A stretch of DNA of 64,000 nt from Patescibacteria group bacterium (GTDB lineage: Bacteria > Patescibacteriota > Microgenomatia > Curtissbacterales > GWA2-41-24): NCBI GenBank assembly GCA_038063735.1, contig JBBTUN010000004.1, positions 106,646 through 170,645 on the forward strand, read 5' to 3'. A program made the translations under genes and the position numbers. The notes under the pieces were generated by a model, which was not told the origin of the DNA, searched no databases, and saw only the letters and a list, made by a program, of their open reading frames with translations. Of this stretch, positions 3,874-64,000 are shown piece by piece (positions within the stretch are counted from its first letter, which is position 1; the number at the start of each line of letters is the position of its first letter).

Positions 3874-3876
3874 TAA

Positions 3877-5655: not shown

Positions 5656-5664
5656 AATTAACTT

Positions 5665-20880: not shown

Positions 20881-20936
20881 TACACTTATTATATAGCACA
20901 AAACATTGCGAAAAAGGTTGCCAGGGAAGCTAAAAA

Positions 20937-42279: not shown

Positions 42280-43418
42280 CTTCTTGCTCGTTCAACAGCT
42301 TTCTCAAGCGACAGGCAAACTTTTTCAATATCCGATTGCTTCATGTCTGTATAAAGCGGTAATGCTAAGCTGGATGCGCTTGTCGACTCACTGACAGGAA
42401 ATCTACCAGCAGAAGCATTAATTTTTTTCCAATAAGGTTGCAAATGAATTGATGGAAGATACGGCTTTGACTGGATTTTATTCTTTTTTAGTATAGCCAT
42501 TGTCTTGTTCCTATCAATGCTCTTGTCTAATAATACAATAAATGCCTGCCAGCTTCTGCTATAAACAGTATCGTCATCACGTAAAGTTTTAATTAAATTA
42601 TTCTTTTTAAGAATTCTCTTGTAGTAAAGTGCAGCCTTTTTTCTTGATGAAAGTATATATTTGATTTTTTTCATCTGCATCAAACCTACAGCAGCGCTCA
42701 TTTCATCCATTCTGTAGTTGAAGCCAAGTTTATCATGAGAAAGCCATTGTCCCGAATCACCCCTTCCCTGATTAATCAGGCTCTTCAAAAGAGTATAGTC
42801 CTCTTTGTTATTAGTCACAATCATACCCCCTTCTCCTGTTGTAATTTGTTTATTCGGGTAAAAAGCAAAAACTGCCAAATTGCCAAAATTGCCAACTTTT
42901 TTCCCTTTATATGTTGCTCCCAACGATTCACATGCATCCTCCACAATTTTCAATTTGTATTTTTCTGCAAGCTTTTTTATTTTTGCATAATTAATAGGGT
43001 AGCCAAATATATGAACGGGCAATATGGCCTTTGTGCTTTTTGTAATAGCCGACTCGATATTTTCGGGGTTAATATTCAAAGTTTCAGGATCTATATCGAC
43101 AAAGACTGGTTTAGCTTGGCAATATAAAATTGCATTTGCAGAAGAAACAAACGAAAATGGAGATGTAATAACTTCATCGCCAGGCTTAAGCCCTAAGGTA
43201 ACAACTGAGGCATGAAGGCCGGCTGTTCCCGAAGAGACAGCAATGGCATATTTTGTTCCGACAAAATCGGCAATACTTTTTTCAAATGCCTCCAGGTATT
43301 TTCCAAGTCCAAGAATTCCGGATCGTAAAACTTTCTGTACAGCTTTCTCCTCGTCAGTTGTAATAAATGGTGGACTCAATGGAATTAACTCTTGTGGTAA
43401 TTTATTAATTCTTTTCAT
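42276..43418 (-). CDS. DegT/DnrJ/EryC1/StrS family PLP-dependent sugar aminotransferase (LegC/PglE-like)
   Basis: 380 aa. AVSSGTAGLH motif and the family-typical length and composition. Confidence 0.8.
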   Translation of the reverse strand: MKRINKLPQELIPLSPPFITTDEEKAVQKVLRSGILGLGKYLEAFEKSIADFVGTKYAIAVSSGTAGLHASVVTLGLKPGDEVITSPFSFVSSANAILYCQAKPVFVDIDPETLNINPENIESAITKSTKAILPVHIFGYPINYAKIKKLAEKYKLKIVEDACESLGATYKGKKVGNFGNLAVFAFYPNKQITTGEGGMIVTNNKEDYTLLKSLINQGRGDSGQWLSHDKLGFNYRMDEMSAAVGLMQMKKIKYILSSRKKAALYYKRILKKNNLIKTLRDDDTVYSRSWQAFIVLLDKSIDRNKTMAILKKNKIQSKPYLPSIHLQPYWKKINASAGRFPVSESTSASSLALPLYTDMKQSDIEKVCLSLEKAVERARR

Positions 43419-44553
43419 AAAAATGTTTTTGAATTAAATTAAGATGTAAATTAATTTTTTCCAGTATTTTTGCGATTTTCTTACCGCTATGCCCATTGCC
43501 GTAAATATTGTCCTTTTTAAACCTTTTTTTGCCCTTGATTATTTTACTTATAGCAGTCTCTATTCTTAAAGCATCGTAGTCAATATCCACCACGTTACTG
43601 TTTCTTTCTCTGCCTTCCTGTCTAGTACCGACATTAACAACTGGCAACCCAAAGGATGAAGCTTCAATTATTCCGCTGGATGAGTTACCAACAAGAACAT
43701 TCGCAATTCTCAGAGTGTTAGCATAAATTCTTCTGTCCATATTTCTTAAGACTAGGTAGTCTTTTTTCGAACTGAATTTTTCAAGCTCATTGGCAATAGC
43801 GTTAGAACCAGGATCTCCATTAGGATAAATCAAAATTCTCGTGCACTTGATGTTTGATACAGCTTTTAATGTTTCTCTTATCTCTCGCCTTGCTGTAGTC
43901 GGAGATGTTGAAACAGGGTGTTGTAACAGAATTATTAAAGTGTTACCAATTTTGACACCCAACTTCTTAGAGAGTTCACCCTTGCTAATTACAGGTTCGC
44001 TCATAAGTTCATCAAGCCCGGGTGCGCCCACTAAAAATACATTTTTTGGATTTTCTCCCATCCTTAAAATCCTATTCATACTTTTTTTTGTCGCGGGAAA
44101 GTGGAAATGGGCAAGTTTTGTAATAGCGTGTCTTATAGACTCATCAAACCCGGCTTTAGAAAGATCCCCACCGTGGATATGAGCAATTGGGATTGGAATA
44201 AAAGCTGCAGAAACTGCGCAAGCAAGCGCTTCACTCCTGTCGCCACTTAAAACGACTAAATCTGGCTTAAGCCTTAAAAGAATTTTGGTAAATTCTAGTA
44301 TCCCGTTGCCTATCTCGAGACTAACCTTCCCCTCAATCTCTTCGTCTATAACAATGTTTACCTTAGCATCTATTGAAAAACCATCTCTATTAATCAGCTC
44401 GATTGTGGAGCCATATTTCTTAAGAAGATGAACTCCGGAGACAATAAGTTGTAAATCAAGACTTTTAGATTCGCTAATCGCGGTAACTACAGGCCTAAGA
44501 ATTCCATACTCAGATCTTCCGCCAGTAAAAACTGCAATACGTTTCCTTTTCAT
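43405..44553 (-). CDS. UDP-N-acetylglucosamine 2-epimerase, hydrolysing type (NeuC/LegG-like)
   Basis: IAVFTGGRSEYGILRPV N-terminus and GDRSEALACAVSAAFIPIPIAHIHGGD. Confidence 0.7.
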   Translation of the reverse strand: MKRKRIAVFTGGRSEYGILRPVVTAISESKSLDLQLIVSGVHLLKKYGSTIELINRDGFSIDAKVNIVIDEEIEGKVSLEIGNGILEFTKILLRLKPDLVVLSGDRSEALACAVSAAFIPIPIAHIHGGDLSKAGFDESIRHAITKLAHFHFPATKKSMNRILRMGENPKNVFLVGAPGLDELMSEPVISKGELSKKLGVKIGNTLIILLQHPVSTSPTTARREIRETLKAVSNIKCTRILIYPNGDPGSNAIANELEKFSSKKDYLVLRNMDRRIYANTLRIANVLVGNSSSGIIEASSFGLPVVNVGTRQEGRERNSNVVDIDYDALRIETAISKIIKGKKRFKKDNIYGNGHSGKKIAKILEKINLHLNLIQKHFYEKN

Positions 44554-45434
44554 AAGAGCCTATCGCCAATTTTAATTTTTCTTGGCTGCCACTTAGTAAC
44601 ATAAATCGCACCATCTCGGCATTTAACGATAAAACCACCCTTTTTCTTTTTTACAACCTCGCCATTTGCTCCTGGAAAGGTTTCATGCATTTTTCTTGCT
44701 TGCCATATTATTAACTTTTTTTCGCCAAACGTACAAAATGCGCCCGGATACGGCCGGGTTGTTGCTCTTATTAGCTTATCAATTCGGTCTAAACTCCAGG
44801 ACCATTTTATTTTTCCGTCCATTGGTTCTCTAGCTGGCCAATAATTACTCCTAGCCGGCTGCATAATTATTTTTATTGTTCCGTTTTCAATTTGGGGTAA
44901 AACTTTGTTAACCATTATTTTTCCAACAGCAATCATTTTTTTGTAAATACTAGCAGCGTCATCCTTAGAAGTAATCTTCCATTTCATTTGATATACAACG
45001 TCTCCGGTGTCTGCGCCTTCATCCAAATACATAAATGTCAGTCCGGAGACTTTTAATCCTTTTATTATCGACCAGGGTATTGGTGATCTACCCCGATTTT
45101 TTGGAAGAAGAGCCGGGTGAGTTCCAAGAACACCGATTGATGGTAACGTCAGTAATGTTTTTTTAACAATTTGTGAGAGGCCAAAAACCAACATCAAATC
45201 TGGTTTTAGTTTTCTTATCAAACTCACATTTTTATTTTCATTAATGTTTTTAAACCAAAAGTGCGGAATCTTATATTTTTTAGCAAGGTCAGATTGATCT
45301 CTGTAATCAGAGATGTTTTTTGAAAAATCTGGATGGACGTTGAAAACGCCAACTACATCGGCAAGTTTTTTTTCTAAAATCTCGTTCAGGCAGTACCAAG
45401 AGAACTCAATGCTGCCTATATAAACGACTCTCAT
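44550..45434 (-). CDS. Formyltransferase (Fmt-like), probable sugar N-formyltransferase
   Basis: GVLGTHPALLPKNRGRSPIPWSIIKG (HxxLLPxxRG motif). The C-terminal domain is Fmt-like. Confidence 0.7.
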   Translation of the reverse strand: MRVVYIGSIEFSWYCLNEILEKKLADVVGVFNVHPDFSKNISDYRDQSDLAKKYKIPHFWFKNINENKNVSLIRKLKPDLMLVFGLSQIVKKTLLTLPSIGVLGTHPALLPKNRGRSPIPWSIIKGLKVSGLTFMYLDEGADTGDVVYQMKWKITSKDDAASIYKKMIAVGKIMVNKVLPQIENGTIKIIMQPARSNYWPAREPMDGKIKWSWSLDRIDKLIRATTRPYPGAFCTFGEKKLIIWQARKMHETFPGANGEVVKKKKGGFIVKCRDGAIYVTKWQPRKIKIGDRLL

Positions 45435-45436
45435 AA

Positions 45437-46099
45437 TTAATCATTTCTGGCGTATAAAATTGAAAAAACTTCTGCATATTTATACCCGGATCTTAGACCT
45501 CTTTCCGAGGCAAGTATCGTTAACCCTTTTAAGGATCTGGGATGAGGGTATTCTTTTAATTCTGATTTGTAAAAACTCATAACCTCCAGCTTATTTTTAA
45601 AATTTAAAGAAATGTTCTCGAAGTAATTAAAAACCTGCTTGTTACTTTTTATTTCCGAAAAATTTGTTGTGACTGGAATCTCATAGCTAATAATCTGTTT
45701 AACTTCACTTCCATTCCATGGTCTAACAACGGAAAGAACATTACCGGTCACAATTTCATGGTCCAAATGGCAATCGAAAAGCGGTGGCGTGTAAATAACC
45801 TCGGCCCTTGTTGACTTGACTGCATTTGAAATTGTATCGGCTATCTCAAGTTGAGGATAACTGGAAAGAGAAGCTGCTTTGAACTTAGCATTAATAACTT
45901 TCCGAAATCCATAATAACTCCCAACTTTTTTTATCTCCTTTTTTTTTGCAGTTATATAACGGGCATCCCATTTCGGAGTAAAAGCGCGAGTCACAATGAG
46001 CCAGGACAAGCTATGGCCGCGAGATGAAAGTTTTGAGAGAGTTCCCCCCATTCCTATTGTCTCATCATCTGGATGAGCAGAAATTATAAGAATATTCAT
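45437..46099 (-). CDS. PIG-L/LmbE family N-acetyl-sugar deacetylase
   Basis: LIISAHPDDETIGMGGT signature. Confidence 0.7.
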   Translation of the reverse strand: MNILIISAHPDDETIGMGGTLSKLSSRGHSLSWLIVTRAFTPKWDARYITAKKKEIKKVGSYYGFRKVINAKFKAASLSSYPQLEIADTISNAVKSTRAEVIYTPPLFDCHLDHEIVTGNVLSVVRPWNGSEVKQIISYEIPVTTNFSEIKSNKQVFNYFENISLNFKNKLEVMSFYKSELKEYPHPRSLKGLTILASERGLRSGYKYAEVFSILYARND

Positions 46100-47208
46100 T
46101 CGACCATTTCTGAAGTAATTTCTTGGTCGGCGACAACAGAAGTTTTCAAATTCTTGTCCAGTAACTGTTCAAAGTCCATCGGTGATTGTCTGCCACGAGT
46201 TCTTTTAGGAATAAGCAAGTCAATAGTGACCTTGTCTCCTTCGGCCATATCATTCCTTGCCCTGACAGCTTTTCTAAAAAACTCTATATTATTTACCTCA
46301 GATGGTTGTACTTTTTTTACTCCATCGCCAAGTGCTTCGGGGTGTTTTATTTCTTTTGAAGGGGATGATTCGGCTTCTCTTATTAAATTAACCATTTCAC
46401 GAAACTCTTCTGTATTAAGAGAAGCTCTATGGTCGGGACCGTCCATTTTCTTGTCGAGTGTCATATGTTTTTCAATAGAAACCGCTCCAAGTCTGACTGC
46501 ATCTGCCGGTACAATCATGTCGTCGCCGTTATCGGAAAATCCCACCAATACACCATATTTTTGAGAAAGCTTTTCTTTAAATGTTTTAATAACATCGAGG
46601 TTTTGTTCTCGTGTAGGAGTAGGATAAGAAGATGTACAGTGGTAAACAAGGATCGTGCCTTCAAAACCATGTTCTTGTAAAAATACTAGGGATCTCTCAA
46701 CGTCTTCAAGTGTTCCACCCCCTGTTGAAAGGAACAATGGCTTAGATTTTAAATCAGGATGTTTTGCGATCTTATATAATAAAAGTCCGTTATTTAAATC
46801 CGGAGACGCAATTTTAATTACAGGTAAGTTTAATCTGGCTAATATATCTACACTTGTCAGATCGTGGGGTGTAGCATAGAAAATTATCCCCTTCTGCCAA
46901 GAATATTGCTGTAGTTGGACAAGTTGGTCTTCTGAAAGTGAAAGTTTTTTTAACATCTCGCGTTGGCTTTCGCCTTCGCCAGTGGTCTCTTTTTGGTAAT
47001 TCCCTTTGGATGCATCCTTAGTTGCAATCTCATCCGGGATAAAAATCTGAAATTTGACAGCGTCTGCGCCGACAGCTTTTGCTTGATCAATAAGTTTTCT
47101 TGCCAAATCCACTTGTCCATTGTGATTGACACCTGCTTCTGCAACGATAAAGCATGGTTGGCCAATTCCTACAGACTTATCCCCAATGCTTATATTTTGT
47201 CTTTTCAT
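46096..47208 (-). CDS. Nonulosonic acid synthase (NeuB/LegI/PseI family) with a C-terminal SAF domain
   Basis: GQPCFIVAEAGVNHNGQ and AVKFQ motifs. About 370 aa. Confidence 0.8.
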   Translation of the reverse strand: MKRQNISIGDKSVGIGQPCFIVAEAGVNHNGQVDLARKLIDQAKAVGADAVKFQIFIPDEIATKDASKGNYQKETTGEGESQREMLKKLSLSEDQLVQLQQYSWQKGIIFYATPHDLTSVDILARLNLPVIKIASPDLNNGLLLYKIAKHPDLKSKPLFLSTGGGTLEDVERSLVFLQEHGFEGTILVYHCTSSYPTPTREQNLDVIKTFKEKLSQKYGVLVGFSDNGDDMIVPADAVRLGAVSIEKHMTLDKKMDGPDHRASLNTEEFREMVNLIREAESSPSKEIKHPEALGDGVKKVQPSEVNNIEFFRKAVRARNDMAEGDKVTIDLLIPKRTRGRQSPMDFEQLLDKNLKTSVVADQEITSEMVE

Positions 47209-47246
47209 ATCGACGACATTGTAATTAATTGTTTAGTCAAATACAA

Positions 47247-47954
47247 TCAACCCTTTTTATATGCAAATAAAGCTCTGGCTATGTTTAGGTCTTCCATATC
47301 ATCTACGTCAATTGATTCTAACTTACTAGTAAGAATGTAACCAGACCGATTTTTAGCAAAAGGATACCTAAGCGCTTTTTTAATAAAATCCTTCTTATAA
47401 ACGTACAAAACGCCATCTATTTCATAATTCTTATCAAAATCTTGTCCACGGATTTTTGAAAAATCATTTGCATAGATAAACTCCAATAGTTCTTTGTTTA
47501 TTTTAAGAATCCAGTTAGAAGGGAATTTAGTTTGTTTTACAGAAAATATTGCGTCAAGCTTATCCCAATTCCCCCAAAGCTTTTTAATGCCAGAGATGAT
47601 GGTAGTTGCTGATCTAAAAGGGGAAGTGGGTTGTAACAAGACTACCGTGTCGAATCGCACCCCTTCCTCTTCCAGTGCCTCAACAGAATGTTTCAAAACG
47701 GACAAGGTCGAAGATTTGTCTTTAGCATGTTGGTTAGGTCTTTTTATAATCTTTGCTTCATACCTGGTAGCAGTTTGAGCAATTTCTGCATCATCTGTAG
47801 AAACATAAATCCGACTAGGGAAGTACTTAGAGATTTTGGCAGATAAAATAGTGTATGCAATTAACGGTTTACCATCGATATCTACGACATTTTTTTTAGG
47901 AATTCTCTTCGATCCACCCCGCGCAGGAATAATTGCAATGGCACGGTGTTTCAT
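47247..47954 (-). CDS. CMP-nonulosonic acid synthetase (acylneuraminate cytidylyltransferase, NeuA/LegF family)
   Basis: AIIPARGGSKRIPKKN N-terminal signature. Confidence 0.8.
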   Translation of the reverse strand: MKHRAIAIIPARGGSKRIPKKNVVDIDGKPLIAYTILSAKISKYFPSRIYVSTDDAEIAQTATRYEAKIIKRPNQHAKDKSSTLSVLKHSVEALEEEGVRFDTVVLLQPTSPFRSATTIISGIKKLWGNWDKLDAIFSVKQTKFPSNWILKINKELLEFIYANDFSKIRGQDFDKNYEIDGVLYVYKKDFIKKALRYPFAKNRSGYILTSKLESIDVDDMEDLNIARALFAYKKG

Positions 47955-47960
47955 AAGTAA

Positions 47961-49244
47961 TTATTCTTCAATATCTTTGCTCTTCAATATTCTAGGGATG
48001 GGAAGAGGAATTATAAAATCACCTCGGAAACCATTTTTTTTAATTTTAGGAGCCAACTCATCTGCAATATGCCATGATAAAAGAAGTGCATAATCCGGTT
48101 GGTCGCTATAAAGCCTATCTTCATCAAGAACGGGAATTACAGTACCAGGGACGTACTTACCAATCTTATGTGAACCTTTTATTTCTAAAACACAATCCAA
48201 AATACCATCATCAATTCCAACGTAATTTATTAGTGTACTGGCTCGTGACGGGGCCCCGATTCCATAAATAACCTTATTTTGTATTTTTAATTTTTCCAAA
48301 AGGGACATGATCTTAAGTTTTGATAAAGTCACTTCTTTTTGGAATCTAATTAAATTTGCTTTATTAGTAACCGCAGCTTTCTCTTTCTTAAGCATATCCC
48401 CAACACTCTTCCCAATTTTTCGAGTGTCTTTCTTGGCAGCGTATACTCTGATTGAGCCACCGTGAGACGGAATGTTTTTTGCATGAAATACCTCAAGCCC
48501 ATGCATAGCAAGGAGATACTTTAAACTGTGGAGTGAATAATATCTCATATGTTCATGATAAATAGTATCATATTGTAAAGTTTTAATTAACGAATAAAGA
48601 TAATGAGACTCAGATATAAATACACCGCCTGGTTTTATGAGTCGAATAATATTTTTCAAAGCTTCATGAATATTTTCCATATGTGCAAAAACATTTGTGG
48701 CAGTGACGACTGTCGCTTTTCCTCTAGTTTTGATAATTTTATCAACAACTTTTGCAGTAAAATAATCTATTATAGTATCAATCCCTTTTTTAACCGCGAG
48801 TTTCCCAATTTCTTCGGGTGTTACCCCGAGAACTTTATGCTCATTAACAAAGTTAGAAAGAAGATTTCCATCATTTGATCCAATGTCTACAATCAAATCC
48901 TCACTTTTAAGTGATAGTAATTTTGAAGATTCGCGATATAATTCCTCAAAATTTTCTCTTAAAACCCTCGTGGTGCTACTCGTGTAAGGGTATTCTGGAG
49001 GGAATAAAATTTTTGGATCAACGATAAGTCCAAGCTGGACTAGATGACATTTTCGACAGTACAACCATTGAGCAGGGTAGCTGGGTTCCTCAGACGGTCT
49101 AGTGCCAATCTTTGGCATCGTGTTGACAGGGGGCAAGTATCCTAGAAAAAGGATAGAGGATAGTTTAGGGTTTTCACATATTTGACATTTTTTTACCACC
49201 ACGCTGGAACCGGTACCAAAAGCAAAGGAAGAATTCTTAGTCAT
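47961..49244 (-). CDS. Putative sugar C-methyltransferase (Zn-ribbon Methyltransf_13 N-domain + SAM MTase, TylCIII/NovU-like)
   Basis: CQIC…CRKC zinc ribbon, a DIGSNDGNLL SAM motif and a C-terminal Methyltransf_14-like region. Confidence 0.55.
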   Translation of the reverse strand: MTKNSSFAFGTGSSVVVKKCQICENPKLSSILFLGYLPPVNTMPKIGTRPSEEPSYPAQWLYCRKCHLVQLGLIVDPKILFPPEYPYTSSTTRVLRENFEELYRESSKLLSLKSEDLIVDIGSNDGNLLSNFVNEHKVLGVTPEEIGKLAVKKGIDTIIDYFTAKVVDKIIKTRGKATVVTATNVFAHMENIHEALKNIIRLIKPGGVFISESHYLYSLIKTLQYDTIYHEHMRYYSLHSLKYLLAMHGLEVFHAKNIPSHGGSIRVYAAKKDTRKIGKSVGDMLKKEKAAVTNKANLIRFQKEVTLSKLKIMSLLEKLKIQNKVIYGIGAPSRASTLINYVGIDDGILDCVLEIKGSHKIGKYVPGTVIPVLDEDRLYSDQPDYALLLSWHIADELAPKIKKNGFRGDFIIPLPIPRILKSKDIEE

Positions 49245-54410: not shown

Positions 54411-56090
54411 ATGAATTTTTCTAAAAGGATACCTTTCGTATTTATTATTTCGACACTTTTTGTTAGTTTTGCCTTAAGGTTTTATGCATTAGGTCAAGTG
54501 CCGAATGGTTTGTCGCCAGATGAAGTTGATGTCGGCTACAACGCTTTTTCTATAATCAAAACTCACAAAGATGTCTACGGGAGAGCCTTCCCGCTATTTT
54601 TCCAATCACTTGACGACTATAAAGCTGGGCTTCCGATATACCTTTCGGTAATCGGTATAAAATTGTTTGGATTATCAGATTATTCAATAAGAGCGATCCC
54701 GGCACTTTTTGGCGCACTTACCCCGATTCTATTTTTCTTTTTTGCCAAATTGCTTTATCCAGAGAAGAAAAAATTTCCTTTTGTCATAATGATTTTAGCC
54801 ACATTTGAACCTTGGGGTATAGCAATTTCAAGAGCCATGATTTTTTACTCGGAATATGTCTTTTTGTGTTTACTAGTTTTAATTACATTTTTAATAGGTA
54901 TGAAAAAAAATATGAAGAATGTTTTATATGTCTCAGGAGCACTTTTGGGCCTTACGCCTTACGTTTATTATTCGTCATTTATTTATATGCCGCTTCTCTT
55001 TGTAGCAGTAAGTTTAATTTATAAGGATTTTATATTTAAAAATTTAAAGACTTGCACTATTAGCTTATTGTTTGTTCTTGTTGTTTCTTTTCCGGCCATA
55101 TCTCTTTACTTAAATCCTCAAAACAGAAACCGTTTTAACGCAATTTCTCTCTTTAATCCAGATACCACTTTGACGCTTTCCATAAAAGAGCAGACGAGCG
55201 ACATTGAAGAAAAGTTACCTTTTTCCGGCTATGTTCATAATCGCAGAATTATTTATGCAAGCGCATTCCTTGATAATTACTTCGATTACTTCAATTTAGA
55301 TTATCTTTTTGTTAATGCAAAAAACATACGTTATTTTTATACAAACTATGTCGGTCTTTTTTACCTTTTTGCTATACCCTTCTTTTTGTTTGGTCTATTT
55401 AAAATAATCACAAGAAGGAAAAAAGATGACTTATTCATTTTAGCTTTAATTATAATCGGACCTATTTCAGCAGCTGTCACACTTGGCTCACCCTTTCCCC
55501 ATCGTGGACTGCTTTTTTTGATAGGAGTTCAAGTCGTTTGTGCGCTTGGACTAACTGCTTTTTTTGATAATTTCTTAAAAAGAAAGCAATGGCAATATAA
55601 AGCCGCAATCATTCTTATAATTTTTGCTTATTTTTTAAATGTGTACTTTTTCATTCACCAATACTTTATTCATTCACCACAAGAATTTAACGCTGAAAGT
55701 AATAACGGAGCTTGGTTTGCAACTGTTAGGGACGTTATGCCATTTGTAAGAAAGAATAAATCCAATTACGAAACTATCATATTTTCGTGGTCTTACAGAA
55801 AATTAGTCCCGGGAGTTTATTACGCATTTTATAACAAGACATCACCTTTTGTTTTTCAATCCAAGTCTGCTCTTTGGACTAACGAACCACCATCATATAG
55901 GCAAATATACGATAAGATCGAAAACATTGAATTCAGACCAATAGATTGGGAAAACGACAAAAGCAGAATTAAAACACTTTTGATCGGATACCCGGAAGAG
56001 TTTCCTCCTGACGTAAAAAATGTGGTTAACAAAACATACTTACCCAATGGTCAAATACATCTCCTTTTTGTTGAAGTGAAAAAAGACTAG
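54411..56090 (+). CDS. GT-C family glycosyltransferase (PMT/ArnT-like)
   Basis: LSPDEVDVGYNAFSIIKTHKDVYGRAFPLFF loop-1 motif, highly similar to the 2191/5665 paralogs. Confidence 0.65.
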   Translation: MNFSKRIPFVFIISTLFVSFALRFYALGQVPNGLSPDEVDVGYNAFSIIKTHKDVYGRAFPLFFQSLDDYKAGLPIYLSVIGIKLFGLSDYSIRAIPALFGALTPILFFFFAKLLYPEKKKFPFVIMILATFEPWGIAISRAMIFYSEYVFLCLLVLITFLIGMKKNMKNVLYVSGALLGLTPYVYYSSFIYMPLLFVAVSLIYKDFIFKNLKTCTISLLFVLVVSFPAISLYLNPQNRNRFNAISLFNPDTTLTLSIKEQTSDIEEKLPFSGYVHNRRIIYASAFLDNYFDYFNLDYLFVNAKNIRYFYTNYVGLFYLFAIPFFLFGLFKIITRRKKDDLFILALIIIGPISAAVTLGSPFPHRGLLFLIGVQVVCALGLTAFFDNFLKRKQWQYKAAIILIIFAYFLNVYFFIHQYFIHSPQEFNAESNNGAWFATVRDVMPFVRKNKSNYETIIFSWSYRKLVPGVYYAFYNKTSPFVFQSKSALWTNEPPSYRQIYDKIENIEFRPIDWENDKSRIKTLLIGYPEEFPPDVKNVVNKTYLPNGQIHLLFVEVKKD

Positions 56091-56091
56091 A

Positions 56092-57768
56092 TCAGTCTAT
56101 TACCCCCAGTACATCAATATAGGGACCTGGTCTTATGAGTCTAAAATATGGGAATATTGCTGTTGTGTCAAAAAGAGCCTCGGGGATATCGGTATCGTAG
56201 ATCTTGCTCCCAGTAGGACTAAAATGTGCAACCAGCCTGTAACGTTTCGGATCAAGCTCTAATAATCTGTCCGAAGATGAATTGTAATTGTCAATAACAA
56301 TTCTTGAGTTGCTTATTAACAAAGCTTTATTTGTATAATTTACCTTGCTATCGCCTGCTGTAGAAATTGCGTTAGCATACATTATATCTCTAACGTTGTC
56401 GGCATATGTATTCCCACTAAGTTTTGCAGCTCTTCCATAATATCCCGGGTTCATCTCCTGCACTTTTTTTATAACAAGCGCATTCGGAACATACCCATAA
56501 TACCTGTGAGACGTAGCTACGAGCGGGGTGCTCTTTTCTATATTCTGGTCCAACCATTGTCTTATAAGATCATAGGTCGATGTTTGAACAAGAACCAAGT
56601 TAAAATAAACAGAATTAAAAAAAGTTAAAATCATAACAATCACAAAAAACAAGTGTCTATATCTGACTCGTAGTACAAATTCATAAAAAACATATCCGGC
56701 CAACACTGGTAAAAAACAAAAAGAAATCAATAAATAGCGACTAAGGGGGGGAAAAAAAAGAACCCATATTAAAATATTTATAACAAAAAAAAGTATAAAA
56801 GCCCGATGTATCCCGTGCTTTTTGTATTTTGTAAGTGCAAAAATCACAAAAAAAAGAATGATAATTGGATCTGTAAAAAAAACATTAAGAATCGACTTGC
56901 CAGCGTTTAAAAAAGAATTTAGGTCCGTTATATTTAACTTAACCAATTCAACGCTGTCCGACCGGTTTGTCGGATCCAAAATTCGAAATACTTTTGACCC
57001 TAAACTAACTAAATTTAGAACGAATACAATCATGGTATAAAAAGTTAGCCCGGCAAGTAATCCTCTAATATATTTTTTAATTTTAAGTTCAGAAAAAAAA
57101 ATGATTAGGCAAATAAGTAATGCGCTCATCGCCCCAAACTGATGGAAACCAAAGGAAACAGCGCTAAAAAAAAATGAAACTAACACATACTTTGGGAACT
57201 TGTTTTTGGTTTTTACGGCTTTTACTGCCCAGTAAACAGCAACTATTGAGAAGAAAACTGCTTCTGACCAAGGTCTTGCTTGATGTGAAATTAAGACAAG
57301 ATTATATGAGGCAGCTGTAAGTAGAGAGCTAAATAATGCGACTTCCTTTTTATAAAACAGTAGTCTAGCAAGTTTATAACTAACCAATATTGCCAAAACA
57401 CCAAATAATGCCGAAATAACCCTAGGTATAAATAGAAAATATCCTTCGTGAGTTACTATCAGAAATTCTAAATCAGAAATAGAATGAATCTTGCCAGTGA
57501 TAAATAAAACAAATGATGCAAGAGCTATGAATGGAATTTGAAGATAGGCACCTAAAGGACCGTAGTTTCCTAAGGTAAATAGTGTTTTGCTAGCAAGCAT
57601 ATTAAGAGCGCTAAGGTGGTAAACAGCTTCATCACCCGAAGCATATAATATTGGAAAACCAATAGTTAAATTAATTGTTCTTAACAATAAACCAATTGCA
57701 ATGATAAAAAGAAGCAAATATTTATCTGGAATATTGGTAACAATACTCTTCAAACTTTGAAACAACAT
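56092..57768 (-). CDS. GT-C family glycosyltransferase (ArnT/PMT-like). Contains a G7A8 homopolymeric tract.
   Basis: ILYASGDEAVYHLSALNML loop-1 DE motif. About 12 TM segments and a roughly 170-aa C-terminal soluble domain. Confidence 0.6.
   Translation of the reverse strand: MLFQSLKSIVTNIPDKYLLLFIIAIGLLLRTINLTIGFPILYASGDEAVYHLSALNMLASKTLFTLGNYGPLGAYLQIPFIALASFVLFITGKIHSISDLEFLIVTHEGYFLFIPRVISALFGVLAILVSYKLARLLFYKKEVALFSSLLTAASYNLVLISHQARPWSEAVFFSIVAVYWAVKAVKTKNKFPKYVLVSFFFSAVSFGFHQFGAMSALLICLIIFFSELKIKKYIRGLLAGLTFYTMIVFVLNLVSLGSKVFRILDPTNRSDSVELVKLNITDLNSFLNAGKSILNVFFTDPIIILFFVIFALTKYKKHGIHRAFILFFVINILIWVLFFPPLSRYLLISFCFLPVLAGYVFYEFVLRVRYRHLFFVIVMILTFFNSVYFNLVLVQTSTYDLIRQWLDQNIEKSTPLVATSHRYYGYVPNALVIKKVQEMNPGYYGRAAKLSGNTYADNVRDIMYANAISTAGDSKVNYTNKALLISNSRIVIDNYNSSSDRLLELDPKRYRLVAHFSPTGSKIYDTDIPEALFDTTAIFPYFRLIRPGPYIDVLGVID
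56745..56759. repeat. Homopolymeric tract GGGGGGGAAAAAAAA (G7 then A8) inside the CDS 56092-57768. It encodes FFPP on the minus strand.
   Basis: Seen directly. It is the longest G/C run in the 64-kb window, and the genome is about 30% GC. Confidence 0.8.
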
Positions 57769-59023
57769 ATTTTAATTCAACTTTTCCGATTCCAGGATAA
57801 ACGCCCATCCAAAAACCATTGCTCATAATCTTATCACTAAATTTTAGATTTCCAACCACCCTATGTTTTATTTTGCAATATGCTGGATGACGCAATAAAT
57901 TTCCTGCAAAAAGACTTCTAGTTTCTATTTTGTTACTTTGCAAATAATTAACTATCGCTAGCCTATTAAATGGTGCGTTGTCTCGAATCGCCAACATAAA
58001 TCCAAACCAACATGGATCAGATTTAATATCCCACTTCGGCAGAACAAAAAAGTTATCAAATTTCTTAAGTTCCTCGTATAGAAACTGGTGGTTTTCTTGT
58101 CTTGCTTTGATAAAACCGGGGAGCTTATCAAGCTGTGCGACTCCTATTGCAGCCTGAATGTCTGTAGCCTTTAAATTAAATCCAATATGTGAATATGTAT
58201 ACTTATGGTCATATCCATAAGGTAACTTGCCAAGTTTGAAAGAAAACCGTCTACCACACCTGTTATCCTGACCTGTCCTGCACCAGCAGTCTCGTCCCCA
58301 CTCGCAAAAGGAATTTACAAGAACATGTAAATCGGGGTTACTGGTAACAACAGCTCCGCCTTCCCCCATTGTTATTTGATGGGCAGGGTAAAAGGAAAAA
58401 GTGCCTATGTCCCCAAACGTAGATACATAACGGCCGGCAAACTTTGAACCCAATGCGTCACAGCAATCTTCAATAAGCCAGAGTCCGTGCTTCTTGGCAA
58501 TTTTAGCTACTTTCTCAGCGTCAAATGGATTCCCGAGGGTATGGGCAAGTATTATAGCCTTCGTTTTGTTTGTGATCGCTTTTTCGATCATTTCAACTTC
58601 AGCGTTTCTTGTTTCAAGGTTAACGTCAACAAAAACAGGTACAGCGCCAAATTGAATGATTGGGTTTACTGTTGTAGGGAAAGAGCAAGCTGCCGTGATA
58701 ACCTCGTCCCCGGGTAAAATTCTCCTTTTGCCAAGTTTTGGAGAAGTCAACGCATAAAAAGCGGCTAAGTTGGCGCTTGAACCGGAATTTGTTATAGTCA
58801 CTAACTTTACGCCCAAAAAATTTCCTAATTTTTTGCAAAACTCTTCAGCATAATGACCTTCAGTTAACCAAAATTCCAATGATGCCTCGACAGCCTTTTC
58901 AATTTCATTATGATCAAAGACACGTCCTGCAACTTTTACAGGAGTGACCCTAGGAATAAATATCTGTTTTTTATGATTTTCGGTATAATACCTACGAATA
59001 AATGCCTGAAGCTGTTTGTCCAT
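57722..59023 (-). CDS. CDP-4-keto-6-deoxyhexose 3-dehydrase (E1; RfbH/DdhC/AscC family of the DegT superfamily)
   Basis: The N-terminus resembles RfbH (…ASLEFWLTEGHYAEEF…NSGSSANL). The exact E1 [2Fe-2S] spacing C-X57-C-X1-C-X7-C is present: DCC…(57)…CWCRTGQDNRC. Confidence 0.7.
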   Translation of the reverse strand: MDKQLQAFIRRYYTENHKKQIFIPRVTPVKVAGRVFDHNEIEKAVEASLEFWLTEGHYAEEFCKKLGNFLGVKLVTITNSGSSANLAAFYALTSPKLGKRRILPGDEVITAACSFPTTVNPIIQFGAVPVFVDVNLETRNAEVEMIEKAITNKTKAIILAHTLGNPFDAEKVAKIAKKHGLWLIEDCCDALGSKFAGRYVSTFGDIGTFSFYPAHQITMGEGGAVVTSNPDLHVLVNSFCEWGRDCWCRTGQDNRCGRRFSFKLGKLPYGYDHKYTYSHIGFNLKATDIQAAIGVAQLDKLPGFIKARQENHQFLYEELKKFDNFFVLPKWDIKSDPCWFGFMLAIRDNAPFNRLAIVNYLQSNKIETRSLFAGNLLRHPAYCKIKHRVVGNLKFSDKIMSNGFWMGVYPGIGKVELKYVVSKFEEYCYQYSR

Positions 59024-59064: not shown

Positions 59065-59997
59065 ATGAAAAAAATAAGTATTGTTACCCCCCTCTTTAAC
59101 GAAGAAGAAAATGTCAAAGAGCTTTATAAACAAATAAGCGATTTGATGGCAAAAGAAAAAAACTATCAATTCGAAATTATAGCGGTTGAACACGGTTCAA
59201 GCGATTCTACGTTCAAAATCTTAAAATCCATACGCAAAAAAGATCCAAGGCTGAAAATTATTCAACTTTCTAGAAATTTCGGTAATGTTGATGCAGCAAT
59301 TAGCGCCGGACTCAATTTTTCAAGCGGGGATGCAGCTGTGATTTTAATGGGAGACCTACAAGAACCACCCGCACTCATTTCGAGTTTCTTAAGAAAGTGG
59401 GAAGAAGGTTACGAGATTGTATACGGAACGATTAAAAAAAGAGCAGATAATTCACTTATTCGTAAATTTAACTCCCTACTGTTCTATAAAATATTAAGGT
59501 TTGCAACCGGAAAAATGTTTCCTGAAAATGCGTCAGATTATAGGCTTGTCGATAAAAAAGTATACGAGGTGATAAATAGCATGGGGGAAAGAAACAAATT
59601 CCTTAAAGGACTAACATTCTGGACTGGCTTTACTCAAATTGGTATCCCATACAATAGATCGCCGAGATTTGCTGGCGAGTCTAAAGCAGATTTCATTACT
59701 GTGCTTAAGGTAGCCGTAAATGGGATATTATCATTTTCCTACATACCGCTAAGGCTAGTGACAATATTGGGGTTTGTACTTGCAATAGCTTCTTTCTTCA
59801 TACTGTCTTTAGAAATCATTTTATTTTTAGCCTTGGGTAGAGAAGCAAAAGGAGTTCTAACAATTGTAGTTTTAATTAGCTTTTTGTTTGGCATGTTATT
59901 TGTGATCCTTGGTGTTATTGGAGAATATATTGCCAGAATTTACGACGAAGTTAAGCAAAGACCAATTTATATAGTCAAGAAAAAAATTGGTATCTAA
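59065..59997 (+). CDS. GT2 polyprenyl-phosphate sugar synthase with C-terminal TM helices (ArnC/GtrB-like)
   Basis: SIVTPLFNEEENV…IIAVEHGSSDST…DLQEPP motifs. Two hydrophobic helices at the C-terminus. Confidence 0.7.
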   Translation: MKKISIVTPLFNEEENVKELYKQISDLMAKEKNYQFEIIAVEHGSSDSTFKILKSIRKKDPRLKIIQLSRNFGNVDAAISAGLNFSSGDAAVILMGDLQEPPALISSFLRKWEEGYEIVYGTIKKRADNSLIRKFNSLLFYKILRFATGKMFPENASDYRLVDKKVYEVINSMGERNKFLKGLTFWTGFTQIGIPYNRSPRFAGESKADFITVLKVAVNGILSFSYIPLRLVTILGFVLAIASFFILSLEIILFLALGREAKGVLTIVVLISFLFGMLFVILGVIGEYIARIYDEVKQRPIYIVKKKIGI

Positions 59998-60635
59998 GAA
60001 GACAAGTGCCCAATGTTCACCATTCTGACATAGGATCTATCGGCAACACCATTAGCACTTTTAGGAAGCTTCACCCACTTAACATCTCCGTTTACAACTG
60101 TCTCCATAAGAGGTATTTTCCTCACAGTTTTAAATCCGCAACGTTTATAAAGATTCACTGCTCTTACATTATCATTAAATGTTATTAAATAGAGCCTGTC
60201 TATATTTAAATTTTTAAAACCCCAACTGACTAAGGTGGTAACACATGTAGTCATCAGCCCAGGAATATTTTTTAAACCTCTCACGACATTATCTAACTCG
60301 CATGAGTTATCCCTTCGTCTGTACCTATAAAAACCTAGATGCCCATAAAACCTACCGTACTCATCCTCAATTGCGAACAAAATCCTGTCCTGATTATCAA
60401 TGACTAAATCCTTTAACCATTTTTTTGTCCTTTTGACAGTAACTTTAAACGTGTCACCAAACCAGAAAGCCTCCCTCCTTCTCCACAAAGCTATATTCTT
60501 TATAAGAATTTTATTTTCAACATCTGCATTGTTTATTACGCGAAGAAAAATTATTATTGAGTGAATTTTGCCAACTTTAATAACAAATTTAGGCCTCTTC
60601 TTCAGAGCGTTTATTTTACTTGAATAATGAGACAT
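59994..60635 (-). CDS. GNAT-family N-acetyltransferase-like protein
   Basis: 213 aa. The C-terminal NVRAVNLYKRCGFK is a GNAT motif A/B-like region. Confidence 0.5.
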   Translation of the reverse strand: MSHYSSKINALKKRPKFVIKVGKIHSIIIFLRVINNADVENKILIKNIALWRRREAFWFGDTFKVTVKRTKKWLKDLVIDNQDRILFAIEDEYGRFYGHLGFYRYRRRDNSCELDNVVRGLKNIPGLMTTCVTTLVSWGFKNLNIDRLYLITFNDNVRAVNLYKRCGFKTVRKIPLMETVVNGDVKWVKLPKSANGVADRSYVRMVNIGHLSS

Positions 60636-60646
60636 TAATTTAGAGC

Positions 60647-61756
60647 TTATTTAGTTAGCTTGCGGACTAAACAGTCTGAAATATAATTTACTTGTTCTTC
60701 CGTAAGATTCACACCACTTGGAAGATTAATACCATTTAGGCCAAGATGATGGGCGACAGGTGTGTTAATTTCCTTATACATAGGAAACATGCTAACCGGA
60801 TAGAAAAATGGCCTTGTGTCAACGAGCTGTTTAGCCATTGCCCTCATTAATTGATCGCGGGTATATTCAAATTTTTTGTCTAAAACAATAGATGACATCC
60901 ATTTATTTGACCTAGTATTTGTTTTGTCAGGATTCATGGATATTCCTCCTAATTTGCCAAGTTTGCGAGCATACCATTTAAATATTTTATTCTTTCTTCT
61001 GACAAACTCCTCAATACGCTCAATTTGAGCCAGTGCGAGGGCTGCTTGGATATTGGACATGTGATAGCTATATCCCACCCGTATTTGCCAAAATTTTCGC
61101 TTCGGATCTTTTCCATGCTCGTTTAGCATTCTTGCTTTGTCCAAATTCTTTTTGCTATTTGTAACGAGCATCCCACCAATTCCAGAAATAGCTATTTTTG
61201 CCCCCTGAAAGCTATATGCTCCAAAATCTCCGAATGTGCCAGGCTTTTTCCCCTTATATATAGAGCCTAATGCTGGAGCAGCATCCTCAACTACATAAAG
61301 TCCATGCTTTTTCGCTATGTTCATAATCTCATCCATCTCACAAAGATTTCCGTACATGTAAACAGGCATAATAGCTTTAGTACGGCTACTGATAGCCTTT
61401 TTAATTTTATCTGGGTCAATGCACCATGTGTCTGGCAAAACATCTATAAAAATTGGTTTTGCTCCAAGACGCATAACTACATCGGAAGCTGCGTAAAAAG
61501 CTAAATCAGGCAAAATAACTTCATCCCCCGGCTTGATATCCAAGCAGGCAAGTGCAAGTTGCATAGCGCCGGTCGCCCCAGACACAGCCATTACGTATTT
61601 GGAACCAATATAATTTGCAAATTTTCTTTCAAGTTTTTCTTTGTAATCAAACATATGATAATTCCACCCGTTAGTGACTGCATCATTTACATAATTAATT
61701 TCTTTTTGAGTAATAGAAGGGCCAGCCGTTAATATCATCCCGTGTGGTCTATACAT
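60647..61756 (-). CDS. DegT/DnrJ/EryC1/StrS family PLP-dependent sugar aminotransferase
   Basis: 369 aa with family-typical organisation: GDEVILPD…AIMPVYMYG…GGMLVTN. Confidence 0.8.
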   Translation of the reverse strand: MYRPHGMILTAGPSITQKEINYVNDAVTNGWNYHMFDYKEKLERKFANYIGSKYVMAVSGATGAMQLALACLDIKPGDEVILPDLAFYAASDVVMRLGAKPIFIDVLPDTWCIDPDKIKKAISSRTKAIMPVYMYGNLCEMDEIMNIAKKHGLYVVEDAAPALGSIYKGKKPGTFGDFGAYSFQGAKIAISGIGGMLVTNSKKNLDKARMLNEHGKDPKRKFWQIRVGYSYHMSNIQAALALAQIERIEEFVRRKNKIFKWYARKLGKLGGISMNPDKTNTRSNKWMSSIVLDKKFEYTRDQLMRAMAKQLVDTRPFFYPVSMFPMYKEINTPVAHHLGLNGINLPSGVNLTEEQVNYISDCLVRKLTK

Positions 61757-61778: not shown

Positions 61779-63581
61779 CTATAAGTTATTTTCAGCAGTT
61801 GATTTTACAATCATATTGGATTCTAGCTCCTTGGGCAATAGCAAAGGAAAAAGATCCTCATATGGTCTGGATACCATAGAACCGTCCGCCCGTTTCACCG
61901 AATGAATTCTAGGCACAACCAATTGCCAATGCCCTGACCTAACGTCACACAATACTGGGCCAGGATAAGAGAGTACTTGTTTTATCTTTTTGTCGATTTC
62001 TCGAGTGTTGTTAATTCTTATTCCACGAATTCCATAAGAGCTAGCTATTTTCAAAATATCTGGAAACCACAATCCCGTTTTTGGGCTCTCACCCATGAGT
62101 CGACCGGCCATATGTGTTTTTTGAGTATGTCTAATTAGCAAATAGCCATTATTGTTAATGACAAAAATTTTAATAGGCAAATTGTTTTGCTTTACTGTAG
62201 CCAGTTCTTGAATATTCATTTGTAAACAGCCATCCCCCGTTACAACAATCGTTCTTTTACCTCCAGAAGCTATACATGCTCCTACGCTACTTGGCCAGTA
62301 TCCCATTGTTGAAATTCCTCCTGTCGTGATAAACCTTTGACCCTTTTTTAAATTCCACGTTTGGCAAACAACATGAAATGGGGAGCTGGTATCAACAACT
62401 ATGGTGTCACGATCGGATGCAAATTTAGATAACCGTTCTGTAAAGTAATACGAATTTACTAGAGCCTCTCTTTTGTAATGGGGCAAAACCATAGGATATT
62501 TTTTTCTCCAGGAAGCACATACACGAGTCCAATTATCAAAGCCTGGAAGCCTCTTTCTATTGATAGATTTTAGTAGTTTTTCAAGAAATACTTTTACGTC
62601 TTTATTTATTTTAAAGTCGATATTGATACCTGGTTTATTTAATTCGAAAACATCTATGTCGACTACAATTTTTTTTGCATGTCTACCCCAATCCTTAGCA
62701 TCATAACCAATAATACCTGTATCAAGCCTTGTTCCCAGGCAGATAATTAAATCGGCATTTTGAATAGCAAAATTTGCAGCTCGCTCTGGGTATAGTCCCG
62801 GCCTGCCAACAAAAAGTGGGTTAGTGCTTTCAATAAGGTCAATGCCAAGTCTTGTTGTTTCAACTGGAATTTTTAAAGTTGAGACTACTTCTTTAAAAAG
62901 TTTCTCGGCCATTCCTGTTCTAATGCCCTGACCAGCCAAGATAAGTGGTCGGCGTGATTTATAGATTATTTCCAAAACTCTGTTTATCTCCTCACTGGAA
63001 ATTTCAGCTATTTTAGGAAATTTTGGTTCAACAAATTTTTGTAAAAGCTTTTCGGGAACTTCCATCCTTTGAATGTCCAGTGGTACCTCTATCCATACAG
63101 GACCGCGCCTTCCAGACATCGCCCAAAAATAAGCCTCCTCCATGTAATGCTTAACACTTGCAGGGTCATCTATTGTTTTAAAGTACTTGGTTACAGATTT
63201 GGCAATTGGTGCGATGTTAATCCCTTGAAGGCCGAACTGCCTAATTTTTGTTTCCTGCATATAAGAAACCGTAGAGTGTGATGATTGCCCGGAAATGACC
63301 AGCATAGGGGCAGAATCTACATACGCGCCAACAACCCCATTTAAGACATTTATTGCTCCCGGGCCTGCCGTTACCATAGCCACACCCATTTTCCCACTAA
63401 TTCTGCCATATGCTTCAGCCGCCATTCCGGTCGCTTGTTCATGATGATTGAATACAGGTTTAATTTTTTTATTTCGAAAGACCGCATCATTTAAAAACAT
63501 TGCCTGTCCGCCAGTAACCATAAACACAGTGTCAACTCCTCTGCTTTCCAAGAATTTCACAATGTAGTCAGATACAGTCAT
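61779..63581 (-). CDS. Thiamine-diphosphate-dependent enzyme of the acetolactate synthase/YerE family
   Basis: 600 aa. N-terminal TPP_enzyme_N (GVDTVFMVTGGQAM…HHEQATGMAAEAYGR), a central domain and a C-terminal TPP-binding domain (GDGCLQMNIQELAT). Confidence 0.75.
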   Translation of the reverse strand: MTVSDYIVKFLESRGVDTVFMVTGGQAMFLNDAVFRNKKIKPVFNHHEQATGMAAEAYGRISGKMGVAMVTAGPGAINVLNGVVGAYVDSAPMLVISGQSSHSTVSYMQETKIRQFGLQGINIAPIAKSVTKYFKTIDDPASVKHYMEEAYFWAMSGRRGPVWIEVPLDIQRMEVPEKLLQKFVEPKFPKIAEISSEEINRVLEIIYKSRRPLILAGQGIRTGMAEKLFKEVVSTLKIPVETTRLGIDLIESTNPLFVGRPGLYPERAANFAIQNADLIICLGTRLDTGIIGYDAKDWGRHAKKIVVDIDVFELNKPGINIDFKINKDVKVFLEKLLKSINRKRLPGFDNWTRVCASWRKKYPMVLPHYKREALVNSYYFTERLSKFASDRDTIVVDTSSPFHVVCQTWNLKKGQRFITTGGISTMGYWPSSVGACIASGGKRTIVVTGDGCLQMNIQELATVKQNNLPIKIFVINNNGYLLIRHTQKTHMAGRLMGESPKTGLWFPDILKIASSYGIRGIRINNTREIDKKIKQVLSYPGPVLCDVRSGHWQLVVPRIHSVKRADGSMVSRPYEDLFPLLLPKELESNMIVKSTAENNL

Positions 63582-63586
63582 CTAAT

Positions 63587-64000
63587 TTATATTAATGCTT
63601 CAATTGGGTTTTCTCTCTCTATGGCGCTTTTTTTCTGTTTTAGGTTTGCCGCAATATCCACAATTATATCTTCTTGGCCAGCCACTATCTTCCTTCGCCC
63701 CAGTTCAACAAGTATGTCTCGGGCATCCACACCAAATCTTTTCGCAGCCATTCTAGCATGTGGAGCAAATCCACTAAAAACTCCGGCAAGTCCACTCGTA
63801 AGGCTGATGGCACTTATTTCCTGCGGTTTTTTCATAATCTTTGCGGTTATCTTTTCGCTATTGTCCATAAGTTTAAAAAGATCAAGATCTAATTTGTAGC
63901 CCTTCCTCATTAGAACGGCAACGATTACTTCAAGCTGACAATTACCTGCGCCTGCCCCCAACCCCCTAGATGTAGTGTCGATTATCTTAGCACCAGCCTC
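63587..64000 (-). CDS. 4-hydroxy-2-oxovalerate aldolase (DmpG/MhpE/BphI family), C-terminal part. The gene continues beyond the window end.
   Basis: The frame is open to position 64000. It has GLGAGAGNCQLE and DARDILVELGRRKIVAGQEDIIVDIA, matching the DmpG catalytic-domain end and the DmpG_comm domain. Confidence 0.65.
   Translation of the reverse strand, partial: EAGAKIIDTTSRGLGAGAGNCQLEVIVAVLMRKGYKLDLDLFKLMDNSEKITAKIMKKPQEISAISLTSGLAGVFSGFAPHARMAAKRFGVDARDILVELGRRKIVAGQEDIIVDIAANLKQKKSAIERENPIEALI

Follow-up and report, generated by a model that had tools for sequence, protein, structure and literature searches.

Here, we analyzed a gene for a thiamine diphosphate (ThDP)-dependent enzyme at positions 61779-63581 (minus strand) of a 64,000-nucleotide stretch of DNA, hereafter the window, from a Patescibacteria group bacterium (assembly GCA_038063735.1, contig JBBTUN010000004.1, positions 106,646 to 170,645). 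The gene most probably (roughly 80%) codes for a ThDP carboligase that is YerE-like, accepts ketones and belongs to the JanthE/ErwE lineage, and that would act within an erwiniose-type branched-sugar cassette. Because genes for a DmpG-type aldolase and a DmpF-type dehydrogenase adjoin the ThDP gene, the donor is likely, by analogy, 4-hydroxy-2-oxopentanoate, which would supply a C4 unit, and not pyruvate. The enzyme type itself is already known. What is new in comparison with the known erwiniose-type system is a cassette without a reductase, with an aminotransferase and a GNAT N-acyltransferase, and in a candidate-phyla host.

The ThDP gene and its operon

The open reading frame (ORF) is intact, starts with ATG and encodes 600 aa with the Pfam domains TPP_enzyme_N, TPP_enzyme_M and TPP_enzyme_C (E 1e-28 to 1e-35). 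The cofactor and catalytic motifs are also intact (Glu48, GDG449-451 and NN476-477, in agreement with the pattern GDG-x(24-27)-NN). At least six independent metagenome contigs encode a protein identical to the window enzyme, and the gene is therefore real and conserved. It is listed below together with its neighbors in the window.

63587-64000, minus strand: 3' end (about 137 C-terminal codons) of a gene for a DmpG/BphI/ErwI-type 4-hydroxy-2-oxovalerate (pyruvate) aldolase (DmpG_comm, E 2e-28)
61779-63581, minus strand: predicted JanthE/ErwE-type (YerE-like) ThDP-dependent carboligase, 600 aa (Pfam, PDB match, neighbor-joining tree, motifs)
60647-61756, minus strand: DegT-family pyridoxal phosphate (PLP) aminotransferase, 369 aa, perosamine-synthase-like (Pfam DegT, E 2e-107)
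59994-60635, minus strand: GNAT (Acetyltransf_3) N-acyltransferase, 213 aa, presumed partner of the aminotransferase (Pfam)
59065-59997, plus strand: GtrB/ArnC/PgfS-like family 2 glycosyltransferase (GT2), 310 aa, with C-terminal membrane helices (NCBIfam; PgfS 243 and ArnC 172 bits, both below cut-off)
57722-59023, minus strand: E1, CDP-6-deoxy-L-threo-D-glycero-4-hexulose 3-dehydrase, pyridoxamine phosphate (PMP) and [2Fe-2S] type (RfbH, 664 bits versus 423)
56092-57768, minus strand: membrane glycosyltransferase of the GT-C fold, PMT_2/ArnT-like (Pfam PMT_2, E 1e-6)
54411-56090, plus strand: second membrane glycosyltransferase of the GT-C fold, PMT_2-like (PMT_2, E 4e-5, 24.3 bits, gathering score 26.1)

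The end of the window cuts the aldolase gene. A contig with an identical ThDP gene (L001) overlaps this end over 6627 nt with 0 mismatches and continues for another 9581 nt, which revealed the operon order cytidylyltransferase, 4,6-dehydratase, acetaldehyde dehydrogenase, 4-hydroxy-2-oxovalerate aldolase and ThDP gene. The complete DmpG-type aldolase (347 aa, L001 8952-9995) scored 410 bits on the equivalog model TIGR03217, well above its cut-off of 286, and its stop codon sits 5 nt before the ThDP start codon. The DmpF-type acylating acetaldehyde dehydrogenase encoded upstream (363 bits, cut-off 282) has a gene that overlaps the DmpG gene by 4 nt. DmpG carries LRDGSHA and HAHNNLG and DmpF carries SCGGQ, which we take to be the catalytic motifs on the basis of the DmpFG/BphIJ literature. 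The two remaining proteins had lower scores: the glucose-1-phosphate cytidylyltransferase-like protein reached 268 bits (cut-off 300) and the NDP-hexose 4,6-dehydratase was below the curated cut-offs.

On the other side of the ThDP gene, the DegT gene follows after 22 nt and the GNAT gene after a further 11 nt. The co-occurrence of an aminotransferase and a GNAT with the ThDP gene, which had been noted in an earlier reading of the window sequence (the original prediction), could be seen here, since both lie downstream on the same strand. E1 had been placed two genes away in that reading; it is in fact the fourth gene, with three genes between. Homologs of the GT2 are present in most related cassettes. 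In locus L021, the GT-C gene at 56092-57768 has the same arrangement and the one at 54411-56090 has a counterpart.

Resemblance to the erwiniose cluster and conservation in relatives

The erwiniose cluster of Pectobacterium atrosepticum SCRI1043 contains the aldolase ErwI and the acetaldehyde dehydrogenase ErwJ (BphI/BphJ-like), the ThDP enzyme ErwE and the reductase ErwF (PMC9306805; reviewed in PMC12247030), as well as genes for CDP-4-keto-3,6-dideoxyglucose (PMC9306805). ErwE uses 4-hydroxy-2-oxopentanoate and rejects pyruvate (PMC9306805). The window locus resembles this cluster in having a BphI/DmpG aldolase, a BphJ/DmpF dehydrogenase and an acetolactate-synthase-like ThDP enzyme beside genes for CDP-4-keto-3,6-dideoxyglucose, and the same gene logic would imply the same donor and the same acceptor. 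According to the original prediction, a C2 unit from pyruvate was transferred to a 4-keto-3,6-dideoxy sugar. The acceptor type is retained in our reading, whereas for the donor the DmpG/DmpF pair points to a C4 unit. Several differences from the erwiniose cluster should also be noted: the window cassette has no ErwF-type NAD(P)H reductase and has the DegT aminotransferase and GNAT genes after the ThDP gene, delivery apparently involves a GtrB-like GT2 and GT-C enzymes and not an O-antigen glycosyltransferase, and the locus belongs to a Microgenomates-like bacterium of the candidate phyla radiation that has not been cultured. No match was found in the literature for the four-gene combination together with O-antigen.

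A contig scan with the ThDP protein alone gave 12 loci, none of them from Pectobacterium, Yersinia, Janthinobacterium or Mycobacterium, and the neighborhoods of relatives were annotated with Pfam tables and local phmmer searches using the window proteins as probes. Wherever the ThDP protein was at least 58% identical and the upstream region was visible (about 10 distinct loci), DmpG was directly upstream in every case, DmpF was also upstream wherever the contig reached, and RfbF, RfbG and a 3-dehydratase were nearby. The hosts of these DmpFG-ThDP loci included Patescibacteria (Daviesbacteria, 74%, and Microgenomates), Omnitrophica, Acidoferrales and a gammaproteobacterial metagenome-assembled genome (MAG). 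In relatives with a ThDP protein of 33-42% identity, RfbF, RfbG and E1 were kept and DmpFG was missing.

We also looked for a conserved aldolase beside the JanthE-type relatives of 33-42% identity, and found NeuB-family, radical SAM and AMP-binding neighbors instead. In L013 (8817-9974), a NeuB-family condensing enzyme is encoded upstream of a distant JanthE-type ThDP gene in place of DmpFG, and could make a longer 2-oxo acid donor. In L011 (6994-9504), two radical-SAM genes and a NUDIX gene lie upstream of another distant JanthE-type ThDP gene. Two loci (L009, 8778-10580; L023, 11922-13748) have a second, divergent JanthE-type ThDP paralog that shares 43-46% identity with the window protein; the one in L023 is accompanied by Ldh_2, a HAD hydrolase, a cupin, DJ-1 and an extra nucleotidyltransferase. 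Such second paralogs suggest more elaborate branched sugars.

Phylogenetic placement and closest characterized enzymes

The top PDB match of the ThDP protein was, by a wide margin, JanthE (8rph, 390 bits), followed by plant acetohydroxyacid synthase (AHAS, about 253 bits), Escherichia coli IlvB (237 bits) and PpYerE (5ahk, 226-229 bits). Identity by blastp was 35% to JanthE and 27-29% to AHAS and PpYerE. A neighbor-joining (NJ) tree (100 bootstraps; 26 sequences, with ErwE, YpYerE and MMAR_2332 not among them) placed the ThDP protein, JanthE and all relatives linked to RfbF, RfbG and E1 in one clade with 100% bootstrap support, which includes relatives from Legionellaceae, Bdellovibrionales and Clostridia MAGs. 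Within it, the subclade with DmpF-DmpG upstream of the ThDP gene also had 100% support. IlvB, IlvI, Arabidopsis AHAS and Gcl fell outside the JanthE clade, and PpYerE formed a second YerE-like lineage with a relative from Thiotrichales; a PpYerE-type relative in a similar locus (L016) scored 451 bits to 5ahk. The phylogeny for which the original prediction had called is therefore in line with a sugar-modifying enzyme, since the protein groups with JanthE and sugar-locus relatives and apart from IlvB, IlvI, plant AHAS and Gcl. Its description as YerE-like is appropriate for the enzyme class, whereas the lineage is that of JanthE/ErwE and not of YerE/PpYerE (29% identity to PpYerE).

JanthE from Janthinobacterium sp. 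HH01 (PDB 8rph, 8rpi and 8rpj; PMC12188165, PMC12247030), the closest solved structure to the window enzyme, belongs to the YerE-like enzymes: it joins 2-oxo acid donors to ketone acceptors, and 4-hydroxy-2-oxovalerate is among the donors that it takes (PMC12188165). Both proteins have the HHEQ motif and the C-terminal tail ...RADGxxVSxPxEDLxPL (residues 564-580 of the window enzyme), which is common only to the JanthE-type clade, and JanthE Tyr268 and Tyr297 are conserved as Tyr264 and Tyr293. In contrast, the window enzyme has the canonical GDG where JanthE has an unusual CDG, and V121, P293 and K567 of JanthE are replaced by Leu118, Gly289 and Arg558.

The acceptor sugar

E1 scored 502 bits against Yersinia pseudotuberculosis E1 (3bcx). 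In its active site, a His replaces the PLP Lys (sequence SFYPAHQITMGEGG), and Cys188, Cys246, Cys248 and Cys256 align with all four cluster cysteines of 3bcx. The active-site His and the four-Cys [2Fe-2S] cluster are the defining features of E1 (PMC8987622), and by these sequence features the window protein is a genuine Fe-S E1. The acceptor-gene set of the locus comprises an RfbF-like protein, a 4,6-dehydratase and the Fe-S E1, and a motif search of 73.6 kb revealed no E3-type reductase. General ferredoxin systems serve SpnQ-type 3-dehydratases (PMC8987622), and by analogy such a system could substitute for E3 here.

Related cassettes with a short-chain dehydrogenase/reductase (SDR) gene differ in this step. 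Their 3-dehydratase (L007, 12688-13908; L004, 12666-13880) has the active-site His, one Cys only and no Fe-S motif, and is therefore ColD-like and reductase-independent. The same ThDP clade is served by two 3-deoxygenation solutions, ColD-like in the SDR-type cassettes and Fe-S E1 in the window.

Proposed pathway

All substrates and products in the following scheme were inferred from domain families, motifs, phylogenetic placement and neighborhood conservation. First, the cytidylyltransferase and 4,6-dehydratase encoded just beyond the window would produce CDP-4-keto-6-deoxyglucose, from which the Fe-S E1 (57722-59023) would strip the 3-OH to give CDP-4-keto-3,6-dideoxyglucose. Second, the DmpF-like dehydrogenase would convert acetyl-CoA to acetaldehyde, which the DmpG-like aldolase would join to pyruvate to form 4-hydroxy-2-oxopentanoate. 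Third, the ThDP enzyme would decarboxylate this acid to a C4 acyl-anion equivalent, which would then be added to the ketone at C-4 of the sugar; the predicted product is a tertiary alcohol with a 3-hydroxybutanoyl branch, that is, the erwiniose precursor. Finally, the GtrB-like GT2 would load the finished sugar onto polyprenyl phosphate, and the GT-C enzymes would pass the lipid-linked sugar to a cell-surface acceptor outside the membrane.

Several points weigh against this scheme. The cytidylyltransferase and the 4,6-dehydratase were both below their cut-offs, and CDP is therefore a likely but not a certain nucleotide carrier. Identity to JanthE, the sole characterized relative, is 35%, and the physiological substrates of JanthE are themselves not known (PMC12188165). 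Orthology to ErwE is argued from gene context and not from sequence. A search by the plant-type ferredoxin Cys motif only, covering ORFs of more than 200 aa in the window and 23 loci, found no E3/AscD-type reductase. In addition, with the L007 SDR as a probe no orthologous ErwF/YerF-like SDR was found in the window or L001, where the best score was 36 bits (180-657 bits elsewhere); the YerF-like ketoreductase that the original prediction had suggested among the neighbors was accordingly absent from both.

The aminotransferase and GNAT in place of the reductase

Most related cassettes have an SDR of 284-298 aa, presumed to be the ErwF/YerF equivalent, directly after the ThDP gene or within the cassette (after the ThDP gene in L004, L007, L009, L010, L015 and L023). 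In the window, its place right after the ThDP gene is occupied by the DegT and GNAT genes, and likewise in L021 (ThDP protein 72% identical). In L028/L029, DegT and GNAT genes follow the ThDP gene as well, and an SDR and a second GtrB-like GT2 are also present; in the window and L021, only the GT2 type that accompanies DegT/GNAT is retained. The DegT ortholog is paired with a GNAT in L021, L028/29, L030, L082, L083, L084 and L085. Two readings of this exchange have to be weighed.

It is quite possible, if short of an even chance, that two sugars are made, the DegT and GNAT enzymes forming a parallel branch toward a CDP-4-acetamido-4,6-dideoxy (or 3,4,6-trideoxy) hexose. The second half of this proposal, held with the same reserve, is that the ThDP product keeps its ketone, as an acyl-branched sugar, unless a non-orthologous SDR encoded elsewhere reduces it, and several other SDR genes do occur within the window. 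The aminotransferase is perosamine-synthase-like: it retains the PLP Lys187 and its best PDB match is perosamine synthetase (281 bits). Moreover, DegT homologs of 43-50% identity form RfbF-RfbG-DegT triads whose flanks, as far as they are visible, encode no branching enzyme, which argues for amination at ring C-4 and a separate 4-acetamido sugar. In L081, the DegT gene comes directly after RfbF-RfbG, and a gene for a sugar N-formyltransferase comes after it. However, the window and L021 have only one GtrB-like GT2 with the cassette, which groups with the GT2 beside DegT/GNAT in L028, and there is no clear reason why two diverged genomes should keep DmpF, DmpG and the ThDP gene without the reductase and GT2 module.

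Alternatively, and more tentatively, a single sugar might be formed: the C-1' ketone of the side chain would receive an amino group from the DegT enzyme and the GNAT would acetylate this amine, giving a 4-C-(1-acetamido-3-hydroxybutyl)-3,6-dideoxyhexose instead of erwiniose. We know of no report of this amino-branched octose-type sugar class. The gene order is consistent with such a route, in that DegT-GNAT stands where L023, L004 and L007 have the SDR, with the ThDP gene on one side and the GT2(-)/E1 pair on the other, and both the window and L021 lack the SDR and its GT2 with DmpF, DmpG and the ThDP gene intact. The GT2 type that these two loci retain also favors amination of the branch ketone. 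Orthologs of the DegT protein at 55-76% identity were accompanied by an N-acyltransferase, an E1-like dehydratase and a ThDP-dependent C-C-forming enzyme (acetolactate-synthase-like or split transketolase) in 8/8 distinct loci, but this co-occurrence may not discriminate, given that ThDP enzymes might be frequent in the CDP-sugar loci of these bacteria in any case. Exocyclic carbonyls can be aminated by the DegT family, and the Kdo8N transaminase 5k8b was among the PDB matches; on the other hand, the nearest relatives with a solved structure, perosamine synthetase among them, aminate ring C-4. We also compared group-specific residues as a clue to the substrate. Residue 161 (EDAA-P-ALG, beside the PLP site) is Pro in orthologs linked to branching enzymes and Glu in loci with only RfbF-RfbG, and this substitution would favor the single sugar, but one clean position is too little to decide. 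The triads without a branching enzyme, the position of the DegT ortholog directly after RfbF-RfbG in L081 and L082, and the presence of SDR, DegT and GNAT together in L028/L029 all speak against it.

In L085 (9099-10004), a PanB-like (Pantoate_transf) gene was found directly upstream of the DegT ortholog.

Other explanations for the ThDP enzyme

The reaction type predicted for the window enzyme, in which ThDP mediates the addition of an acyl anion to the keto group at C-4 of CDP-4-keto-3,6-dideoxyglucose, is that of YerE (Yersinia pseudotuberculosis, yersiniose A) and PpYerE, and the acceptor pathway (RfbF, RfbG and E1) is common to both systems. A route like that to yersiniose A, in which pyruvate gives a C2 (acetyl) unit to the 4-keto-3,6-dideoxy sugar and DmpF and DmpG serve another purpose, might be considered for this reason, the more so as pyruvate is also among the donors taken by JanthE (PMC12188165). 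We regard it as unlikely. YerE uses pyruvate or 2-oxobutyrate without an aldolase partner and has the reductase partner YerF, which is absent at the window locus, whereas DmpF-DmpG invariably share one operon with the ThDP subclade. In addition, ErwE, from a cluster of the same gene logic, rejects pyruvate (PMC9306805), and PpYerE belongs to the other lineage and is about as distant from the window enzyme as AHAS is.

It is very improbable that no C-branch is made at all and that the operon provides an acyl donor, with the ThDP enzyme making 3-hydroxybutanal, DmpF converting it to 3-hydroxybutanoyl-CoA and the GNAT N-acylating a 4-amino sugar. This scheme would employ all five operon genes and would be redox-neutral, and many bacterial glycans contain N-(3-hydroxybutanoyl) amino sugars. 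However, most DmpF-DmpG-ThDP cassettes (ThDP protein 59-74% identical) have an SDR and a 3-dehydratase and no aminotransferase or acyltransferase, and the characterized relatives JanthE and ErwE are carboligases (PMC9306805, PMC12188165).

Like the AHAS large subunit (IlvB/IlvI/IlvG and the plant enzyme), the window protein has the three-domain fold of the ThDP decarboxylase superfamily, the catalytic Glu and GDG...NN, and AHAS models were the top NCBIfam matches by name. Yet TIGR00118 gave 370 bits (cut-off 538) and the other AHAS models gave 226-346 bits (cut-offs 509-1084), such that none was passed. In AHAS, the second Arg of RFDDR binds the carboxylate of the acceptor 2-oxo acid; this position reads RLDTG in the alignment, and the acceptor-binding Arg is lost. 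The Trp574 region also differs, and the C-terminal tail is extra. No IlvN/IlvH homolog was found at E<=10 among ORFs of at least 70 aa in the window and the 9.6 kb beyond, and neither ilvC nor ilvD was among the annotated window neighbors. The original prediction had argued for a sugar role over amino-acid biosynthesis and had seen no ilvC, ilvD or ilvN nearby; both statements hold over the window and the 9.6 kb beyond, and past the window end, where an ilv operon or small acetolactate synthase subunit would have spoken against it, there are instead the aldolase, dehydrogenase, 4,6-dehydratase and cytidylyltransferase genes. By the curated cut-offs, the missing regulatory subunit, the motifs, the tree and the embedding in a sugar operon, a genuine biosynthetic or catabolic acetolactate synthase (IlvB/IlvG/IlvI/AlsS) can be rejected almost with certainty.

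Implications

So far, acyl-branched sugars made by YerE-like enzymes have been described in surface glycans from a small number of proteobacteria and mycobacteria. The same chemistry seems to be widely encoded in ultra-small uncultured Microgenomates/Patescibacteria, as well as in Omnitrophica and Acidoferrales, whose surface glycans are essentially uncharacterized, and the cassette predicts a rare sugar in them. For the biocatalytic synthesis of tertiary alcohols, the interest lies in a further natural enzyme whose donor is probably a functionalized C5 keto acid. If the DegT enzyme does act on the branch ketone, this would be a new kind of tailoring, and its product a new amino-branched sugar. 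Candidate-phyla bacteria may pair the aminotransferase/N-acyltransferase module with two unrelated ThDP branching enzymes, acetolactate-synthase-like and split transketolase, and thereby diversify their surface glycans.

Split transketolases and the wider glycan island

Split transketolase pairs (Transketolase_N plus Transket_pyr/Transketolase_C) were identified in L081 (5514-7243), L082 (11923-13679), L083 (5043-6763), L085 (11820-13576), L010 (3860-5607) and L084 (15525-17480). In CDP-sugar loci they adjoin E1-like dehydratases, GtrB-like GT2s and orthologs of the DegT and N-acyltransferase genes, and may represent a second route to C-branched surface sugars in candidate-phyla bacteria. One E1-like DegT-family gene (L082, 14630-17326; 898 aa) has an intein (Intein_splicing, LAGLIDADG_3) between its two DegT halves.

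Every annotated ORF of the 64-kb window is a glycan-biosynthesis gene. Seven PMT_2/ArnT-like GT-C genes are present (680-7251, 37279-38787 and 54411-57768), four of them in tandem. GT4 and GT2 genes are also numerous in this glycan island, which carries rmlC/rmlD-like genes (19385-20952) as well. A nonulosonic-acid-type block on the minus strand (42276-49244) contains genes for a DegT aminotransferase, a UDP-GlcNAc 2-epimerase, a formyltransferase, a PIG-L deacetylase, NeuB and a CMP-sugar cytidylyltransferase, after which comes a gene for a TylC3-like sugar C-methyltransferase (47961-49244). This block suggests that a second unusual sugar, methyl-branched or N-formylated, is encoded in the same island.

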